From Candidatus Aldehydirespirator sp. (GTDB lineage: Bacteria > Actinomycetota > Acidimicrobiia > Acidimicrobiales > Aldehydirespiratoraceae): 64,000 nt of DNA. Shown piece by piece: positions 6,189 to 12,444 of the stretch. How positions within the stretch are numbered: position 1 is the first letter of the stretch; each line of letters begins with the position of its first letter. Position numbers and translations under genes: made by a program. The stretch spans positions 595,211 to 659,210 of the forward strand of contig CBDCSK010000015.1 in NCBI GenBank assembly GCA_965221605.1, in the 5' to 3' direction. The notes below the pieces were generated by a model. That model ran no database searches and had not been told where the DNA came from. It worked only from the letters and a program-made list of their open reading frames with translations.

Positions 6189-7394
6189 GTGAGCCTGCGT
6201 CCTCGGCGGCTGTCGATCTCGCAGGCTCGCCGGGTGGCGCTGGCAGCCCAGGGATTCTGCGACCCCGCGCCCACCACGCGGGTGGATCGCCGTCACCTGC
6301 GCCGGATGATGGGCAGGCTCAAGCTGCTCCAGCTCGACTCGGTGCCGGTGGTGGTCCGCACCCAGTACCTGCCACCGTTCTCGCGTCTCGGCTGCTACGA
6401 CTCGTCCCTGCTGGATCGGATCGCCTACACCGACGACGAGTGGTTCGAGGCATGGGCCCACGAGGCCTCCCTGCTCCCCGTGGGCGACGAGCCGCTGCTG
6501 CGCTGGCAGAAGCAGCGGGCCGAGCAGGGCGACACCTGGAAGAACCTGGCGGATCTGGCCCGAAGCGAGCCCGGCTACCTGGCCGAGGTGCTGGCCCAGG
6601 TGACCGAGCGCCCGCTGACCGCGGGCGAGTTGGCCGATCCCCGGCGCCGCGACGGCGAATGGTGGGGGAGCCGGTCGCTGGGCTCGATTGCCCTCGACTG
6701 GCTGTTCCGCATCGGGGCGGTCGGGATCCGGCGCCGGGGCAACTTCGTCAAGGAGTTCGACCTGCTCGAGCGGATCGTCCCGCCCGGCGTGCTGGCCAGG
6801 CCCACGCCGGGCGCGGAGGAGGCCCAGCGCGAGCTGCTGGTCCGCTCGGCCCAGGCGTTGGGAGTGGGCACCGCCACCGACCTGATCGACTACTACCGCC
6901 TGCCGGTGCGGGAGGGCAGGGCCCGGCTGGGCGAGCTGGTCGAGGCGGGCGCCGTCAAGACGGTGGCAGTGGAGGGCTGGAACGAGCCCGCCTTCATGCA
7001 TCCCGAAGCCCGCCTGCCGCGGTCGGTGGATGCGCTCACGGTGCTGTCGCCGTTCGATCCGATCGTGTGGAACCGGGCCCGGGCCCTGCGGCTGTGGGGC
7101 TTCGACTACCGCATCGAGATCTATGTCCCTGCGGCCAAGCGCGTCTACGGCTACTACGTGCTGCCCGTGCTCGACGGCGAGCGTCTGGCGGCCCGCCTCG
7201 ACGTCAAGACCGACCGGTCCGGGAACACCCTGCAGGTGTTGGGCGCGTTCGCCGAGCCCGATGCCGATCACGGAGCCCTAGCCGAGCGGCTCCGACCCCA
7301 TCTCAACGAGTTGGCCCGCTTCGTCGGCGTCGACGACGTGAGCTACGGCTCCCGCGGCGACCTCGCAGCCGCTTTGCGACCCGCCGGCGGGTAG
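6189..7394 (+). CDS. Winged-helix DNA-binding protein of the YcaQ/AlkZ family (DUF1006; interstrand-crosslink DNA glycosylase family)
   Basis: 401 aa, GTG start. Family-typical LQLDSV...FEAWAHEAS...FDYRIEIYVPAAKRVYGYYVLP motifs. Confidence 0.75.
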   Translation: MSLRPRRLSISQARRVALAAQGFCDPAPTTRVDRRHLRRMMGRLKLLQLDSVPVVVRTQYLPPFSRLGCYDSSLLDRIAYTDDEWFEAWAHEASLLPVGDEPLLRWQKQRAEQGDTWKNLADLARSEPGYLAEVLAQVTERPLTAGELADPRRRDGEWWGSRSLGSIALDWLFRIGAVGIRRRGNFVKEFDLLERIVPPGVLARPTPGAEEAQRELLVRSAQALGVGTATDLIDYYRLPVREGRARLGELVEAGAVKTVAVEGWNEPAFMHPEARLPRSVDALTVLSPFDPIVWNRARALRLWGFDYRIEIYVPAAKRVYGYYVLPVLDGERLAARLDVKTDRSGNTLQVLGAFAEPDADHGALAERLRPHLNELARFVGVDDVSYGSRGDLAAALRPAGG

Positions 7395-7531
7395 AGGATC
7401 TTGGCTCGGGCGGGGTCGAGGTCGGTGGTCTCAACCTCCTCGGCGATTGGCTCGATGTCGGCATCGGTGAGCACACGCCCCGTGCGGGTGCGGTAGGTCC
7501 TCGGCTCTGTTGGTTCGATCGGTTCGGTCAT
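7313..7531. repeat. Left copy of a ~220 bp diverged direct repeat bracketing the 7.5-11.8 kb island
   Basis: Aligns by eye with 11763..11984 at roughly 80-85% identity with a 9-nt indel. Covers the last ~27 codons of the ycaQ-like gene plus the convergent small ORF. Confidence 0.85.
7343..7531 (-). CDS. Small RHH/CopG-antitoxin-like protein (paralog of 11793..11984)
   Basis: 62 aa, core EPRTYRTRTGRVLTDADIE..EVETTDLD..AKILYPP. The differences from its paralog are mostly synonymous in this frame. Its 3' end overlaps the ycaQ-like gene in antisense by 52 nt. Confidence 0.5.
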   Translation of the reverse strand: MTEPIEPTEPRTYRTRTGRVLTDADIEPIAEEVETTDLDPARAKILYPPAGRKAAARSPREP

Positions 7532-7598
7532 CGGTGTGGCCGTCTTCTGGCCAAAGCGGTTCGAGCCTTCGAGGACACGCTGGGGTTCGCGCAGGCGC

Positions 7599-9473
7599 TC
7601 AGTTGTCGCTGAGGCGGCGGTGCTTGGCCAGGCCGGCCTGCAGCAGCTTCTGAGCGTCTCGGGCGCCGAGGTCTAGGAAGCCGTCGGGCCAGTCTTCGCT
7701 GAGTCCGCCTAGCGGATTGACGTCTGAGGGTCGGAAGGATGTGTGTCCATTGTCGTCTCGCTCCGCAAACACGATCCGGACCAGTTCGCCGATCCTCCCG
7801 CTCTCGGCTTCGGCGGCGCGGCGCCTCAGCCTGTTGACGAGATGCTCGCTGTGGGTTTCGACGATGATCTGTCGTCCGCTGTCGACGCAAGCAAGCAGGA
7901 AGTCTGCGAGGCGCATCTGAAGTGCCGGATGCAAGTGCAGTTCAGGCTGCTCCAACAGCACGATGTCGCCCGGCTCGGCCAGCAGACAGACCGTGAGCAC
8001 GGGCAGGACCTGACTGACGCCGACGCCGACTGACGTGAGATCGACTTGGCGGTCGAGGTCGGTCGGGCGCACCTCGATGCTGACACCGGCGCGACCTCTT
8101 GCCTCCACGGTGACGTCCTCAACTACCTCCAACTCCCGCAGCCAATACTGCAAGCCGTCCACTAGGTCCGCTTGTCCGAGCCCGGGCACATCGACCGACT
8201 CCGTGCCGTGCCATTGGAGCACCTGCGACAGGTGCTCCCCGGCAGCGCCGACATCGGGACGGCCGTCATCACCGAAGTCGAAGTATGGCCGCGGCTCCTG
8301 TCTGAGCGGTCCTAGGTACCGAACACGGTCCTGGAGCAGCGTCGCAACTTCTGATCTCAACGCTCCTGCTATGTAGTGATTCGCTTGCTCATTCAAGACA
8401 GGATCCTGGAGCCACGCGTCTTCCTTGCATTCCTGGAGAAAGAGCCGGGCGATCCTGAGATAGTCGACTACTGGCATAGCACTGTACGGATCAGAGATTG
8501 AGGTGTCGTCGCTTGAGGTGTCGTCGAAGCGCAATTCTCCAGCCTCAGCTATAGACAGCCCAAGTGCGTAACCATCCTCATTGTCACGGTCGCGTGCTCG
8601 ATCCTGAATCCGTTCAACTAGCGGGTTCACATCTGCTTGGTCAAGAGTCACTGAAGTCTCGTGTGGCAGCATGTCTGCCTTTTGATCCGATTCCTGCTGT
8701 GAGAAATATGCTCGGTTACGATAGAACTTCTGACGCAAACCGTGAGCGTCATCTTCATTTGGTGGGTCTAGATGTCTCTTCACTAGGTCTCCAAATGTCG
8801 AGGTACGCGGCATGGTGATGGTTGCTACAGCACTGCGAATATCGCGAATGCCGGGATGAACAAAGGACCGTGCTGCAGGGTCGTAGGCGTCTGAGCCGAC
8901 AGTGTCCCTGAGCGCATCCAAGAACTCCTCGCGCCGTTGAAGTTCGTGTTTGACATCTCCTGCGCGGTCATGACCCCAGTGCCCCGCGTAATGATCCCAG
9001 TACCTCTGAACGTATTTCTCCCAGACAGCTCGCAGCCAATGCGTTGCACAGAACAGCAGCGCAGCATCAGACACTCTGAACTGGTTGACAAGAATCTGTG
9101 CATGGCCACGATCAGGTCTTGTATCTGGTTCTGCGACTTGGAGCATCAACCGGGACTGAGTCTTGACGTCGCTGCTGTCCTCGCTATGCTCCGTGGACTC
9201 GAGGCCCGCCTGTATAGAGATCGGACCGTGTGCGCCGACTGTGCGTACATCGTCGAATGTGCCGAGCTTCACCTTGGTGCCGTTTAGCGGGACTTCGATT
9301 CCGGTCTTGTACGCTTGGGCGGTTTGAGACAGGAATCTGATCGACTGCAGGAGTGAACTCTTGCCCGAGCTGTTCATGCCTATCAACACGGTGAGGGGCT
9401 TGAACTCAACCGCACTGTCGGCGATCGACTTGAAGTTCTTGAGTTCGAGGGATCTCAGCGGGAATGGGTGCAT
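7599..9473 (-). CDS. ABC/SMC-like AAA ATPase (AAA_15/AAA_21 type with DUF3696-like C-terminus)
   Basis: 624 aa. Walker A is GMNSSGKSS near the N-terminus; C-terminal LLEQPELHLHP (Walker B/D-loop) and ETHSEHL (H-loop). A long insert lies between the ATPase halves. The central part (about 8350-9400) is visibly lower in GC than its surroundings. Confidence 0.85.
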   Translation of the reverse strand: MHPFPLRSLELKNFKSIADSAVEFKPLTVLIGMNSSGKSSLLQSIRFLSQTAQAYKTGIEVPLNGTKVKLGTFDDVRTVGAHGPISIQAGLESTEHSEDSSDVKTQSRLMLQVAEPDTRPDRGHAQILVNQFRVSDAALLFCATHWLRAVWEKYVQRYWDHYAGHWGHDRAGDVKHELQRREEFLDALRDTVGSDAYDPAARSFVHPGIRDIRSAVATITMPRTSTFGDLVKRHLDPPNEDDAHGLRQKFYRNRAYFSQQESDQKADMLPHETSVTLDQADVNPLVERIQDRARDRDNEDGYALGLSIAEAGELRFDDTSSDDTSISDPYSAMPVVDYLRIARLFLQECKEDAWLQDPVLNEQANHYIAGALRSEVATLLQDRVRYLGPLRQEPRPYFDFGDDGRPDVGAAGEHLSQVLQWHGTESVDVPGLGQADLVDGLQYWLRELEVVEDVTVEARGRAGVSIEVRPTDLDRQVDLTSVGVGVSQVLPVLTVCLLAEPGDIVLLEQPELHLHPALQMRLADFLLACVDSGRQIIVETHSEHLVNRLRRRAAEAESGRIGELVRIVFAERDDNGHTSFRPSDVNPLGGLSEDWPDGFLDLGARDAQKLLQAGLAKHRRLSDN

Positions 9474-9476
9474 GAT

Positions 9477-10355
9477 TCAGGCAGCTTTCGCGAGCACTTG
9501 GGCGCCAAGCGCCGAGAGTGTCCTGTCGAGTGTCGGCCGGAGCGCTGTGAACGCTGCCATTCCGATGTCGCGGCCTAGACACTCAACCCAGTGGTCCGGG
9601 TTCATTGTCTCGGGCGTTAGCTCTTGGAACTCCGTCGTGACGTGGCGTGTGGCTACGAGATGGATCGTCTCGGCCAGTCGCAGGTGTTCACGCGGGGGTG
9701 TGGCTGGCTCCGGTGACTCGCCGTAGGTCTGGGGATGCAGCCGTTCGGGCTCAAGCAGCCAGGGGTCGTCATCGTCGAGCAGTGCAGCTGTGCAGTCGTC
9801 CGTGAGGGTTCCCCACTCGGCGACCTCGTCCTCCTTGAAGTGCCAGCGAGGGTCGGTCGGTCCGGCCAGGGGAAGTCCGGCATACGCGCCTTCGACTGTT
9901 CGGTCTCGGTCGACGACTATGTCGCCGATGGCTTGCAGCACGGACTCCGTCAGGGCGCCTACCCGCTCACGCAGTTGCAGTAGCCAGATCGGGCCACGCA
10001 CGTAGCACTCGACTACCAGCGGGTGGGGCAGGTCCGAGTCGTCGCTTGCGATCACCGCGTCGGTGTCGGTTGCGAGTTCGGGCCATGGATGGGCGAGCAT
10101 CATCTCGGCTACATCGCGCTGGGCGTCGACGCGACGGACGACGGCAAGCCGCCTACGACCCCCCATCCACGGCAACGGCTTGACCAGGCGGATATCGCCG
10201 CGGGCGATGGGCTGGGCGGCGCGGGCCGAGCCGATCGTCCTCTGATGGGGTGGTCGGTTTGTCAGCGCCTCCTTCACGGCTGCGAGGCCAGTGGCGCTCG
10301 GATCGTTCGCTGCCTCGCTATCGGGGCGCTCGGTCTCGCCCGGCGGGGGCGTCAT
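9477..10355 (-). CDS. Hypothetical protein (possible MazF/PemK-like beta-barrel near the N-terminus; unknown acidic C-terminal domain)
   Basis: 292 aa. ATGA overlap with the upstream gene and a 3-nt gap to the ATPase gene. The segment GDIRLVKPLPWMGGRRRLAVVRRV resembles the first strands of MazF-fold proteins (weak). Confidence 0.55.
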   Translation of the reverse strand: MTPPPGETERPDSEAANDPSATGLAAVKEALTNRPPHQRTIGSARAAQPIARGDIRLVKPLPWMGGRRRLAVVRRVDAQRDVAEMMLAHPWPELATDTDAVIASDDSDLPHPLVVECYVRGPIWLLQLRERVGALTESVLQAIGDIVVDRDRTVEGAYAGLPLAGPTDPRWHFKEDEVAEWGTLTDDCTAALLDDDDPWLLEPERLHPQTYGESPEPATPPREHLRLAETIHLVATRHVTTEFQELTPETMNPDHWVECLGRDIGMAAFTALRPTLDRTLSALGAQVLAKAA

Positions 10356-11359
10356 GCCGAGGCCTCCTCAAGGTTGGCGCTCGCGAGTTCTAGCAGCAGT
10401 GCGGCGGCCTCATCCCGCAGCGGCTCAGCCACGCGGTCGGCGAATGTGGCATCTGTACGGTCGAGCACGGCCTTCTTGCGGCCCGCGACCCAGGGTCGTG
10501 ATCGTCCGAGCCGCTCGGCGATGGCGTTGTCGGACTGGCCTTGCGCCTTGCAGACGAGCACCGTCAGGTCCTGAGCAGTCATCGACTCCACGAGATCCTG
10601 CACCGCCGATTCCATGTCTTGTCGCTCGATTCTGTCGGTGGCGTCCGGGACGCTTGAGGCTCTTTCGGCCAAGTCGTCGCCCTCAACAGATACAAGGGAC
10701 GCTGGAAGCCATGCTGCAAGGAGAATCCTGAAGACTCTGGCTAGATCGGCTTCGAAGACGCCACCGGCTTCGTCGATCACGGCAAGCAGTACCTCTTGTA
10801 GCGCACCCGGCGAATACGCCATCGAGGCCCGCTCTGCGCCCTCGCGTTCGACAAGCCTTGGAACTCGGTGGGCGGCCGCCGCGGCGGCACGCAGTTCCGC
10901 GTCGTCCAATGTTCGAGGCACGCCGGGCACGCCGGGCTCGTCGGCCCGGGTGATCCACTGCTGTCCCTTCTCGAATTGCACCCTGAACGGTGGCTGAGAG
11001 GCCATCTGGCGGACCCGGCCCATCAGCCGGTCGACGACGGTCGCGGAGCGACGGCGCCACAAAGCTCGCTTCACGTTGCGGGTGAGCAGTCTCCGGACAT
11101 CTTCAGCGCTGTCGGCCACCGTGAAGATGTAGTCGATCTGCCCCTCCTCGATCAGCAACTCCGTGGCCGTCTGCTGAGCGAGCTCTTCGACGGAGGCGTT
11201 GTCCCACGGCGCGCCCTGGTTGTACTCCGCGGGCCGGTAGCGCCGCCCCACCATCCCCGACAGTTCGACGGTCAGGGCCCAGATGAGCGGACCGATCCTC
11301 TCCTCTTCGTACTCCCGGCGCAGTTCGCCGAAGCCGATGGGCCGGCCCGCCGGGGTCAT
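10352..11359 (-). CDS. Sigma-70 region-4 / LuxR-type HTH protein
   Basis: 335 aa. C-terminal LTVLVCKAQGQSDNAIAERLGRSRPWVAGRKKAVL fits the region 4.2/LuxR HTH pattern. ATGA overlaps at both ends. Confidence 0.55.
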   Translation of the reverse strand: MTPAGRPIGFGELRREYEEERIGPLIWALTVELSGMVGRRYRPAEYNQGAPWDNASVEELAQQTATELLIEEGQIDYIFTVADSAEDVRRLLTRNVKRALWRRRSATVVDRLMGRVRQMASQPPFRVQFEKGQQWITRADEPGVPGVPRTLDDAELRAAAAAAHRVPRLVEREGAERASMAYSPGALQEVLLAVIDEAGGVFEADLARVFRILLAAWLPASLVSVEGDDLAERASSVPDATDRIERQDMESAVQDLVESMTAQDLTVLVCKAQGQSDNAIAERLGRSRPWVAGRKKAVLDRTDATFADRVAEPLRDEAAALLLELASANLEEASA

Positions 11360-11733
11360 GGCCTCATCCTCCTGCGAACCTCGACGAGCAGCGACGAATC
11401 CTCTGGTTCCTCGCAGGAGTAGGACTCGTCGTTCAGGTGCTCAAGGTCTACGGCCACGGGAACGGCCAGTATCACCCCACCGCGTTGGTTGATGCTGCAC
11501 GGGTCCGGTGGGTCGTGGCGATGGGCGTCATGTCTAAATCCGCCGGGCTTTGTCGAGCGCGGGAATAGGACTGCGTCTGGACCGAGGCGCGTGGCCAGCA
11601 TCACCGGCCGGTCCTTCCCTCGGTCGAACGGCCTACCCCGCCTTGTTAGAGCCTTGTCTCCGGGCACGCAGAACCACGACCCAATCGGGTACTCGTAGCC
11701 GAGTTGCGCTCGCACCGCATCCCACCCTCGCAT
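11356..11733 (-). CDS. Putative PemK/MazF-fold toxin-like protein
   Basis: C-terminal 125 aa of ORF 11356..12042, from MRGWDAV. GSWFCVPGD...GKDRPVMLATRLGPDAVLFPRSTK resembles the MazF pattern (G..v.v....RPvlVl...v.v.P.T). The start is uncertain. Confidence 0.4.
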   Translation of the reverse strand: MRGWDAVRAQLGYEYPIGSWFCVPGDKALTRRGRPFDRGKDRPVMLATRLGPDAVLFPRSTKPGGFRHDAHRHDPPDPCSINQRGGVILAVPVAVDLEHLNDESYSCEEPEDSSLLVEVRRRMRP

Positions 11734-11762
11734 CAAAGGCAGTCCCCGGGTGCGGGAGAACG

Positions 11763-11984
11763 GGCCCGCTTCGTCGGCGTTGACGGCATGAGCTACGACT
11801 CCCGAGGCGGCCTCATGGCCGCCTTGCGACCTGCCCGGCGGGAATTCGGCGGGTAGAGAATCTTGGCTCTGGTGAGATCCAGGTCGGTGGTCTCCACCTC
11901 TTTGGCGGTTTGCTCGATGTCGGCATCGGTGAGCACGCGCCCAGTGCGGGTGCGATAGGTCCTCGGCTCTGTGGACTCTGTCAT
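11763..11984. repeat. Right copy of the ~220 bp direct repeat bracketing the island
   Basis: See 7313..7531. Contains a relic of the ycaQ-like 3' end (..RFVGVDGMSYDSRGGLMAALRPARREFGG*) on the plus strand. Confidence 0.85.
11793..11984 (-). CDS. Small RHH/CopG-antitoxin-like protein, first gene of the island operon (paralog of 7343..7531)
   Basis: 63 aa from MTESTEPRTYRTRTGRVLTDADIEQTAKEVETTDLD. Preceded by an AT-rich promoter-like tract. Confidence 0.5.
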   Translation of the reverse strand: MTESTEPRTYRTRTGRVLTDADIEQTAKEVETTDLDLTRAKILYPPNSRRAGRKAAMRPPRES

Positions 11985-12027
11985 ATGGGTGGACGCTGCC
12001 TCGGAAGATGGCTGAAGTACATACACA

Positions 12028-12057
12028 TAAATACATGAACAATTACCAAGAATACAA
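12028..12057 (-). promoter_or_regulatory. Candidate sigma-70-type promoter for the island operon
   Basis: Minus strand reads TTGTAT (12057-12052), an 18-nt spacer, then TATTTA (12033-12028), inside a strongly AT-rich tract (12010-12060) in an otherwise GC-rich context. Confidence 0.3.
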
Positions 12058-12108
12058 CCTTCATTCTCTTGGTCCTGGAATCGATGCGCCGCGGCTAGCG
12101 TTTAGGCG

Positions 12109-12444
12109 ATGAGCGTTGCCGTTGAGCCTTCCGATCTGGCGTCGGTTGCGGCCGACCATGGGCCGACGGCCTTCGTGCTCACGGTGGGCGACGACGGGCG
12201 GACCCGGGTCATTCACGTGAAGGTCGACATTGACGCAGAGGGCGTTGTCCGGACCGTCGTCGGCAGGGGAGCGGCCGCCAACGCAGTGGCCCGGCCGGAT
12301 GTGGTCTTGCTGTGGGCGCCCGCGGCCGATGGCTTCAGCCTCATCGCCGACGGGGTGGCCTCGGTCGACGGTGAGCCGCGGCCCGACACGCCGGTGACCA
12401 TCGAGGTCTTCTCGGCGGTCAGGCACCGCCCCGCCCCGGTCTGA
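12109..12444 (+). CDS. Pyridoxamine 5'-phosphate oxidase-family (split-barrel) small protein
   Basis: 111 aa. Pattern TAFVLTVGDDGRTRVIHV...IEVFSAVRHRP is typical of the PNPOx-like family. Confidence 0.5.
   Translation: MSVAVEPSDLASVAADHGPTAFVLTVGDDGRTRVIHVKVDIDAEGVVRTVVGRGAAANAVARPDVVLLWAPAADGFSLIADGVASVDGEPRPDTPVTIEVFSAVRHRPAPV

Follow-up and report, generated by a model that had tools for sequence, protein, structure and literature searches.

A four-gene operon pairing an NsnB-type ABC ATPase with predicted MazF-fold proteins, a candidate defence-type module of Acidimicrobiia

Introduction

Several bacterial conflict systems that act in anti-phage defence or abortive infection, such as Menshen, PARIS, Septu and Gabija, are controlled by an ATP-binding cassette (ABC) ATPase. 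Here we describe an operon of four genes, p125-p335-p292-ATPase, in a 64,000-nucleotide stretch of DNA from Candidatus Aldehydirespirator sp. (contig CBDCSK010000015.1; hereafter the window), for which Menshen is the closest described relative. Menshen consists of NsnA, NsnB and NsnC (Li et al. 2025, PMC12065111) and goes back to Millman et al. 2022, as cited in that work. Its ATPase, NsnB, is distinguished by a GxG signature, by EN where Walker B normally reads DE, and by a helical DUF3696 tail. Paired DUF3696 tails are predicted to clamp the effector NsnC at its N-terminal domain, which has an inactive-nuclease fold; according to that work, this asymmetric arrangement has also been seen in Septu and PARIS (PMC12065111). 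The operon of the window likewise has an ATPase of NsnB type, accompanied by three proteins that match no named family. We put the probability that it is an undescribed member of the ABC-ATPase-controlled conflict systems at roughly 0.55.

Acidimicrobiia are abundant uncultured marine and sponge-associated bacteria, and to our knowledge almost nothing has been described of their immune repertoire. All close relatives of the window's proteins are found in Acidimicrobiia metagenome-assembled genomes (MAGs), several of which are labelled Candidatus Aldehydirespirator. An initial annotation of the window had proposed at this place a five-gene defence or abortive-infection module, bracketed by direct repeats of about 220 bp. 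The features it observed are all present in the sequence, but the unit that is conserved comprises four genes rather than five.

Results

A conserved and translationally coupled four-gene unit

The open reading frames (ORFs) of all five genes listed by the initial annotation are found on the minus strand exactly where it had placed them. The operon and the features upstream of it are as follows.

7599-11733, minus strand: four-gene cassette p125-p335-p292-ATPase (ORFs, conserved order)
11356..11733, minus strand: p125, 125 aa, first cassette gene (ORF)
10352..11359, minus strand: p335, 335 aa (ORF)
9477..10355, minus strand: p292, 292 aa (ORF)
7599..9473, minus strand: NsnB-like ABC ATPase (AAA_15/AAA_21), 624 aa (ORF, Pfam, PADLOC)
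11793..11984, minus strand: small_R, 63 aa (ORF between the AT-rich tract and p125)
12010..12075, minus strand: AT-rich tract upstream of small_R and the cassette (sequence)

The junctions p125/p335 and p335/p292 are 4-nt overlaps and p292 is separated from the ATPase gene by a 3-nt gap, which bears out the coupling proposed earlier for the last four genes by overlaps of ATGA type or a 3-nt gap. Small_R lies apart, with 59 nt between it and p125. The AT-rich tract that had been called promoter-like is present at about 12010-12075, but a scan for promoters and terminators returned nothing on the operon strand and scored no sigma-70 consensus promoter there, this tract included. We infer that the tract is probably the promoter region.

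Relatives were compared as loci L001-L132, with homologous protein records given P-numbers. The order p125-p335-p292-ATPase recurs with the same coupling in more than 13 Acidimicrobiia MAG loci and at least five genomic contexts, so that the genes do co-occur outside this genome. Loci found through the ATPase (L002-L009) show this order with overlapping stops and starts at 30-58% identity (tblastn and ORF analysis); closer relatives recovered through p335 (L042/43, L044/45 and L069) have the same order and coupling, and so do L046-49 and L130-132. The contexts are the junction between an AlkZ-like gene and a gene named p111 (the AlkZ|p111 site of the window); a recurrent insertion site between an NAD-dependent epimerase gene and a gene for a family-2 glycosyltransferase of ~1030 aa (L005, L006 and L009, identical to L131, L049 and L132); a heme-biosynthesis cluster (L048); a nitrile-hydratase region (L046); and a position beside SbcCD-like genes (L130). 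The epimerase|glycosyltransferase site is occupied in three Acidimicrobiia MAGs, two of them labelled Aldehydirespiratoraceae.

Purifying selection acts on all four cassette genes. In comparisons with the closest intact orthologs, the ratio of nonsynonymous to synonymous substitution rates (dN/dS, or omega) is 0.14-0.21 for p335, 0.22-0.31 for p125, 0.32-0.40 for p292 and 0.25-0.30 for the ATPase. The composition of the cassette sets it apart from neighbouring housekeeping genes, with a GC content at third codon positions (GC3) of 0.66-0.77 versus 0.86-0.93. Pseudogenised cassettes are frequent (L001, L010, L012, L062 and L064).

An ATPase of the NsnB type with a hypervariable insert

The ATPase is the only cassette protein that matches PADLOC models, and a look-up of its exact sequence found nothing on record. 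Pfam reports AAA_15 (1.5e-28) and AAA_21 (7.3e-24), and among PADLOC profile hidden Markov models (HMMs) the best is NsnB (3.8e-69), ahead of HEC-03B (3.1e-51), PDC-M55A (2.1e-38) and AriA (8.3e-31), with PtuA, GajA and Old matching weakly. The initial annotation had described a generic ATPase of Septu, PARIS or Gabija type; its closest named relative is instead NsnB of Menshen. Two parts of the protein are distinguished below.

8349..9188, minus strand: hypervariable low-GC central insert, residues ~96-375, ~280 residues (GC dip, alignments)
7602..7781, minus strand: C-terminal tail, residues ~565-624 ('GGLSEDWPDGFLD...'), DUF3696-like (Pfam, orthologs)

The sequence carries Walker A GMNSSGKS, a YLGPLR motif, the signature GVGVSQ, Walker B LLEQPE and the H-loop ETHSEH. 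When 11 orthologs are aligned, Walker A (GxNSSGKS) and the C-terminal GGLSEDWPDGFLD tail are invariant, and YLGPLR, GVGVSQ, Walker B LEQPE and the H-loop ETHSEH are conserved. Walker B LLEQPE (residues 505-511, ~7941-7961) occurs in 10 of the 11, the remaining ortholog (L008) having EHPE. Canonical ABC ATPases have D-E at this position, where exchange of the Glu for Gln classically blocks hydrolysis and not ATP binding. The window's ATPase thus has the deviations typical of NsnB: GxG for SGG in the signature and an amide for the catalytic Glu of Walker B, together with a conserved LGPLR.

The call of AAA_15/21 domains with a DUF3696-like end holds for the former, whereas the DUF3696 match itself is sub-threshold (residues 565-601, E 0.017, 15.8 bits versus a cut-off of 22). 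The DUF3696-like character of the tail is nevertheless backed by the NsnB HMM, which aligns to the end of its profile (344/345), and by residues S592-D601, which are invariant in the 11 orthologs; the ortholog in L132, moreover, has a recorded, weak hit to DUF3696. Among solved structures, those nearest in sequence, an OLD-family ATPase and a retron PtuA, match weakly and only over Walker A and the signature/Walker B segments. The nearest relative recovered from outside the family, L011, is a canonical Menshen operon, whose three genes encode a GmrSD_N protein, an NsnB of 350 aa that has DUF3696, and one further protein. Judged by its sequence, the ATPase belongs to the NsnB (Menshen) clade.

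The central low-GC segment noticed earlier is real: GC is 0.52-0.59 at about 8200-9400 of the ATPase gene versus ~0.70 in the flanks, and GC3 is 0.52-0.54 in the insert versus 0.76-0.77 in the rest of the gene. Among the closest orthologs the insert is 52-64% identical at the amino acid level with an omega of 0.33-0.43, versus 80-91% and 0.13-0.19 for the ATPase lobes, and across all 11 it has large indels and no alignable conservation. It is missing from the 345-position NsnB profile, the HMM aligning residues 347-612 to profile positions 107-344. The insert is a candidate sensor or specificity module.

Two predicted MazF-fold partners

The proteins p125, p335 and p292 have no significant match in Pfam, PADLOC, NCBIfam or PHROGs, and the members of their homolog clusters (52 for p125, 111 for p335 and 86 for p292) are all unnamed or 'hypothetical', with no precomputed Pfam domain. 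Sequence and profile searches of p125 and p292 against the sequences of the PDB gave nothing usable, and Pfam scans of 44 p125 and 74 p292 homologs revealed no consistent family.

For p292, an AlphaFold2 (AF2) model built on a 74-sequence alignment (pLDDT, the per-residue confidence score, 83; pTM, the predicted template-modelling score, 0.75) has a beta-barrel N-terminal domain and a helical C-terminal domain, which places a MazF fold at residues ~50-160 and an alpha-helical domain at ~170-292. Foldseek returned 39 PDB matches at E<=1e-3, all of them MazF, the best being 5hkc (E 4.9e-5, TM-score on the target ~0.7), and the matches in a viral structure library are PemK-like proteins. The weak MazF likeness of the p292 N-terminus noted at the outset is borne out by the model, and the N-terminal half is predicted to be a MazF fold.

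A similar suggestion had been made for p125, whose orthologs precede p335 in all cassette loci. Its AF2 model (pLDDT 86) also favours MazF, with weaker statistics: the ten best Foldseek matches in the PDB are all MazF/Kid (probability 0.47-0.98, at least 0.84 for 8 of the 10; TM-score 0.41-0.55; E ~0.1-1.0). Both families were aligned with hhalign to a MazF seed made of E. coli, B. subtilis and Kid sequences and one MazF from L001. In these alignments, R42 of p125 ('RPVVLA') falls on R25 of BsMazF and 'PRST' falls at the T48 region (E 6.5e-4), and R69 of p292 falls on the catalytic Arg, BsMazF R25 (E 2.4e-4), with probabilities of only 28-44% for these catalytic-position alignments. According to its model, p125 is a MazF/Kid-fold protein, with Arg and Ser/Thr at what may be the catalytic positions. 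Across 44 p125 homologs there is also a pattern H-x2-H-x7-C-x27-C (~11413-11532), in which H68, H71 and C79 are invariant and C107 is conserved in at least 90%. It falls inside an insertion relative to MazF and may form a metal (zinc) site. The two MazF-fold families are not recent paralogs, since hhalign detects no relationship between p292 and p125.

A public gene call for p125, P0198 (226 aa; window 11356-12042, minus strand), reads through small_R in another frame. This extension is an annotation artefact, because the homologs are 125-140 aa long and dN/dS in that frame is ~1.

A sigma-region-4-like domain in p335

The C-terminal part of p335 (residues ~235-300) contains a helix-turn-helix (HTH) of sigma-70-region-4/LuxR type, as had been suggested. 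The evidence consists of weak HTH_23, sigma-70 and IS630 HTH matches in profile libraries, profile matches in the PDB to only a LuxR-type response regulator and region 4 of SigF (E 0.03-0.1), and an hhalign alignment to RpoE/SigW that is confined to region 4 (residues 234-306). The NCBIfam model for extracytoplasmic function (ECF) sigma factors scores 15.6 bits versus a cut-off of 42.9, and this hhalign comparison with ECF sigma factors detected no sigma region 2. A bona fide sigma factor was considered and rejected, the ECF alignment covering region 4 only.

Comparison with described systems

The cassette shares with Menshen an ATPase that shows the hallmark of NsnB (an ABC ATPase with a DUF3696-like helical tail), and in addition one component with a DNA-binding domain and another that begins with a domain of nuclease fold. 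It differs in lacking a ParB-DUF262/ParBDB protein and an NsnC that joins an inactive PIN domain (inPIN) to a toxin, and in having two MazF-fold proteins, four genes, the ATPase in last place and an ATPase insert of ~280 aa. For NsnA, no GmrSD_N/DUF262 was found in p125, p335 or p292 at E<=0.1, whereas the NsnA of L011, used as a control, scores 2.3e-24. For NsnC, nothing related to the cassette lies downstream of the ATPase gene, and p292 has a predicted MazF-fold N-domain and a helical C-domain.

PARIS (AriA-AriB) also has an AAA_15/21 ABC ATPase, but the AriA model matches far more weakly than NsnB, the cassette has more components, and neither PADLOC nor Pfam finds a DUF4435/TOPRIM AriB in any partner. 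Septu, Gabija and OLD use ATPases of the same superfamily, whereas the cassette lacks an HNH protein (PtuB), a fused TOPRIM and a UvrD-like helicase. Specifically, Pfam and PADLOC searches gave no PtuB/HNH hit, PtuA HMMs reach 1e-14 and the NCBIfam PtuA model 44 bits versus a cut-off of 500; the ATPase ends in its DUF3696-like tail without a TOPRIM, GajA and Old HMMs match ATPase motifs only, and the operon encodes no helicase. For ABC-3C, p125, p335 and p292 have no hit to the MC1-8 or CTD families, and the sole MC6 hit (E 0.084) is spurious and lies on AlkZ.

Toxin-antitoxin (TA) modules of the MazEF/Kid-Kis (PemK) type resemble the cassette in the fold predicted for p125 and the N-terminal half of p292, and perhaps in the Arg and Ser/Thr of p125 that align with the catalytic positions. 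In contrast to them, p125 has its His-His-Cys-Cys insertion, the MazF fold of p292 is fused to a 120-aa helical domain, the PemK_toxin HMM misses both proteins, and the setting is an ATPase operon. No MazE/Kis-type antitoxin gene is adjacent: none of AbrB or ribbon-helix-helix (RHH) type lies 5' of p125 in the cassette loci, and small_R lacks an RHH domain.

The cassette is therefore not Menshen, PARIS, Septu, Gabija, ABC-3C or canonical MazEF, because their defining components were tested and not found. This agrees with the earlier remarks that the ATPase has no HNH or TOPRIM nuclease partner (none among the cassette proteins in Pfam or PADLOC) and that the combination was not recognisable, as no named system's gene set matches in Pfam, PADLOC, NCBIfam or PHROGs. 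The searchable literature contains no described system that pairs an ABC/AAA_15 ATPase with MazF, nor this gene combination, and the only DUF3696 paper found that bears on this ATPase is the Menshen survey (PMC12065111).

The AlkZ|p111 junction as an insertion hotspot

In the window the cassette occupies a variable site with the following boundaries.

6189..7394, plus strand: AlkZ-like DNA glycosylase gene, left boundary (Pfam AlkZ-like E 6.5e-53)
12109..12444, plus strand: p111 gene, right boundary (conserved in relatives)
Window junction 7394-12109: hotspot, with cargo in relatives at L055:11254-11619, L062:11327-11692, L064:12231-13508, and L001:7810-9800 and 10900-11700

The left-hand neighbour had correctly been called ycaQ/AlkZ-like. 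An AlkZ probe recovered 80 loci, and the state of the site was scored in ~35 relatives whose AlkZ is at least 78% identical. In most the site is empty, with p111 following AlkZ after 14-76 nt; L050, the locus with the closest AlkZ of all (90% identical), is one of these. Four loci (L060, L067, L068 and L076) hold a small-gene module only, intact cassettes are present in the window, L042/43, L045 and L069, and decayed cassettes in L001, L010, L062 and L064. The empty sites and single-repeat-unit sites that were predicted for relatives thus exist. As these states are interleaved on a neighbour-joining (NJ) tree of AlkZ, the cassette is a presence/absence polymorphism at a hotspot.

Elsewhere the same junction holds canonical PemK/MazF and HipA/HipB modules. 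No integrase or transposase was found in or beside the cassette, and no tRNA or Rfam element that could be an integration target at the site. Alignments of the p111-p125 intergenic region across relatives are too diverged to fix the insertion breakpoints. A junction with empty, TA-filled and cassette-filled states amounts to a natural experiment on the gain and loss of such modules. In still other relatives AlkZ and p111 flank metabolic genes (CobW, WD40, Fe-ADH) or have no gene between them.

Direct repeats and an orphan small gene

The repeats and the second copy of the small gene are located as follows.

7313..7531, unstranded: left direct-repeat copy, small_L plus the last 82 nt of AlkZ (blastn)
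11763..11984, unstranded: right direct-repeat copy, small_R plus a displaced AlkZ 3'-end remnant (blastn, tblastn)
7343..7531, minus strand: small_L, 62 aa, second small-gene copy, convergent with AlkZ and overlapping its 3' end (ORF)

The diverged direct repeats are genuine: 7313-7531 and 11763-11984 are 82-89% identical with one 12-nt indel (blastn E 1e-59), and only two copies occur within the 64-kb window. Each repeat spans an entire small gene together with the final ~82 nt of AlkZ, hence the second small gene at 7531-7343. By tblastn, AlkZ residues 366-399 match 11734-11835 at 65% identity, so that the similarity reaches 11734. Both small copies are protein-coding, because dN/dS between them is 0.23 in the small-ORF frame only, and ~1.0 in the other two. 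Small_L shares 74% amino acid identity with L042:15268-15468 in the same position and is the positional ortholog of the single copy in L042/L043.

The small gene had been called RHH-like. An exhaustive HMMER search gave 21 representative homologs, most of 50-130 aa, which have in common the N-terminal motif YRTRTGRxLTDADIE that precedes RHH_1 domains in longer homologs; the motif is present in the window's small proteins, but Pfam finds no RHH domain in them. In two long proteins, P0256 (977 aa) and P0265 (956 aa), a motif of this type is matched five to seven times in tandem. In the loci with the small-gene module only and in L062, the small gene is the second of two genes and overlaps by 4 nt an ~81-aa first gene (L060:5082-5324, minus strand; also L062, L067, L068 and L076) that matches DUF4258 (E 1.6e-3) and BrnT_toxin (E 4.4e-3), both below cut-off. 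The pair looks, from its sequences, like a two-gene TA-like module whose 'antitoxin' has the leader motif of RHH antitoxins without the RHH domain. The small gene alone resembles BrnT-BrnA modules, in its 4-nt overlap with a weakly BrnT_toxin/DUF4258-matching gene and in its motif; unlike them, the window's two copies have neither an RHH domain nor a toxin partner. The BrnT-like gene is absent from the window, which leaves both copies as orphans, under purifying selection. Compared by eye, the AT-rich tract of the window resembles the AT-rich region 5' of the module in L060 and L068.

The small gene is absent from every cassette outside the AlkZ|p111 site, no small gene lies 5' of p125 in L002-L009, L042/43, L044/45 or L069, and the duplication is restricted to this genome. 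At the AlkZ|p111 site, L042 and L064 have it on the side of AlkZ, L062 has it on that of p111, the window has a copy at each end of the cassette, and L001, L010 and L069 have none. Thus the proposal that the repeats are a plain insertion scar does not hold, since in relatives the cassette at this site is accompanied by one small copy, on either side, or by none; for the same reason attL/attR sites of the cassette were rejected as the simple reading of the repeats. Instead, the repeats mark recombination in the overlap of the AlkZ 3' end and the small gene at the hotspot, and not every cassette has them. In L062, too, the small gene has a displaced AlkZ 3' remnant beside it, with the same structure as the window's right repeat, and this common feature points to insertion into the AlkZ 3' end. 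The segment could have been brought in by a circle that held a diverged copy of it and integrated in Campbell fashion, or it could have been duplicated in tandem, with differential loss afterwards. Small_R is a lineage-specific and locus-specific orphan paralog outside the conserved cassette, and the small gene and the 220-bp repeats belong to the chromosomal hotspot rather than to the system.

Discussion

The cassette is a credible candidate for a new defence-type module. This reading draws directly on gene order and coupling, co-occurrence, purifying selection, mobility, presence/absence polymorphism, the clade of the ATPase and the MazF folds of the models. In PARIS, an ATPase scaffold holds an RNA-targeting effector until a trigger is sensed, and the logic proposed here is based on that scheme. 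The NsnB-type ATPase would oligomerise, and its DUF3696-like tail would hold one or both MazF-fold proteins inactive; p292, encoded directly upstream of the ATPase, is the likeliest adaptor or effector, and p125 the likeliest active endoribonuclease. The fast-evolving low-GC insert could recognise an invader-derived trigger, whereupon a nucleotide-dependent rearrangement would release or activate the MazF-fold RNase or RNases, with cutting of host and/or phage RNA and growth arrest as the outcome. Since Walker B has EQ rather than DE, the rearrangement may be brought about by ATP binding rather than rapid hydrolysis. With its sigma-region-4/LuxR-type HTH, p335 would bind DNA and might either autoregulate the operon or sense nucleic acid, like NsnA.

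The most specific form of this proposal is tentative, and we hold it with clearly less confidence than the general one. It is a four-component anti-phage system in which the insert senses infection, the tail gates a pair of MazF-fold RNases (perhaps p125 and p292 as a pseudo-heterodimer, p125 holding a zinc site) and p335 couples the complex to DNA or transcription; these would be the first MazF-fold nucleases under an ABC ATPase instead of a labile antitoxin. If the cassette functions as proposed, it extends the ABC-ATPase defence logic of Menshen, PARIS, Septu and Gabija to MazF-fold effectors, links the largest class of TA RNases to ATPase-gated immunity, and defines three currently unannotated protein families (p335, p292 and p125). 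The pairing of such an ATPase with MazF folds is unprecedented, although its weight is tempered by the narrow taxonomic range and by the many candidate defence systems already catalogued.

Several observations weigh against a defence role or against the effector assignments. Outside the window's clade, the neighbours of the cassette are housekeeping genes and not recognisable defence islands. All members of the family come from a single class of uncultured bacteria, and tblastn of p292 against phage genomes gave no match. The structural match of p125 is weak by E-value (~0.1), and PemK_toxin (PF02452) hits none of 44 p125 or 74 p292 homologs at E<=1, whereas control PemK genes in L055 and L062 score ~1e-26. 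Furthermore, p292 shows in the hhalign comparison no conserved Ser/Thr at the MazF catalytic position and may not be a nuclease. In p335 the HTH is the only assignable part, the N-terminal ~230 residues matching no fold, and p335 is the most conserved and slowest-evolving cassette protein, which is unusual for a sensor.

Some of these points would fit the chief rival reading, a selfish addiction module of TA type without a dedicated anti-phage role, in which a MazF-type toxin, p125 and perhaps p292, is neutralised by p335 and/or the ATPase and loss of the cassette is costly. An antitoxin encoded after its toxin is familiar from higBA and mqsRA, and p335, as an HTH antitoxin or autorepressor, overlaps the end of p125 by 4 nt. 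The MazF folds, a hotspot otherwise filled by classical TA modules (PemK, HipA, BrnT-like) and the lack of a defence-island context elsewhere point in the same direction. However, classical type II TA modules offer no role for an NsnB-type ATPase of 624 aa that carries a hypervariable insert, partners of 335 and 292 aa far exceed the typical size of antitoxins, and the ready decay of the cassette argues against strong addiction. All characterised ATPases of this type, moreover, sit in defence systems (PADLOC; PMC12065111). On balance we consider an addiction module unlikely. It is not wholly separate from a defence role, and the two readings overlap; many TA systems act in abortive infection.

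The five-gene unit of the initial annotation, with the small RHH-like protein as antitoxin or regulator and the 220-bp repeats as insertion scars, is contradicted by the comparison of loci and very improbable. Small_R does lie between the AT-rich tract and p125 under purifying selection, its motif family is linked to RHH antitoxins, and otherwise empty sites with a single small gene exist. Nevertheless, it is missing from all other cassette loci, including the closest intact relatives L042-L045, it has no RHH domain, its natural partner in relatives is the BrnT/DUF4258-like gene and not the cassette, and at this very site there are cassettes with a small gene only to the left, with one only to the right, and with none.

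Slightly less probable again is a housekeeping or stress-response module composed of a sigma-like regulator, RNA-processing enzymes and an SMC/RecF-like ATPase. Housekeeping flanks in several lineages and purifying selection on all four genes would agree with it. Against it, the cassette is present in some close relatives and absent from others, has decayed several times, is atypical in composition and has inserted into several contexts, and p335 is without a detectable sigma region 2.

Least probable, finally, is a divergent Menshen whose NsnA and NsnC have changed beyond recognition into p335 and p292: NsnB is the ATPase's best HMM, the nearest non-family relative (L011) is a canonical Menshen operon, and a DNA-binding component plus an effector with a nuclease-fold N-domain are formally analogous, but the partners give no ParB-DUF262/GmrSD_N signal where the L011 control does, the N-domain of p292 is predicted to be MazF-like and not PIN-like, the ATPase comes last instead of in A-B-C order, and there are a fourth gene and an ATPase insert absent from NsnB.

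Variant loci and taxonomic labels

Among the closest intact relatives, L042 and L043 have an extra gene of 394 aa between the ATPase gene and the small gene (L042:13973-15157 and L043:5201-6385), which has no Pfam hit and is absent from the window. Cassette-bearing contigs that are assigned to other phyla look mis-binned, namely L069, labelled Bryobacterales, and those of P0033 and P0223, labelled Chloroflexota. The AlkZ of L069 is 85% identical to that of the window, and the synteny is the same.

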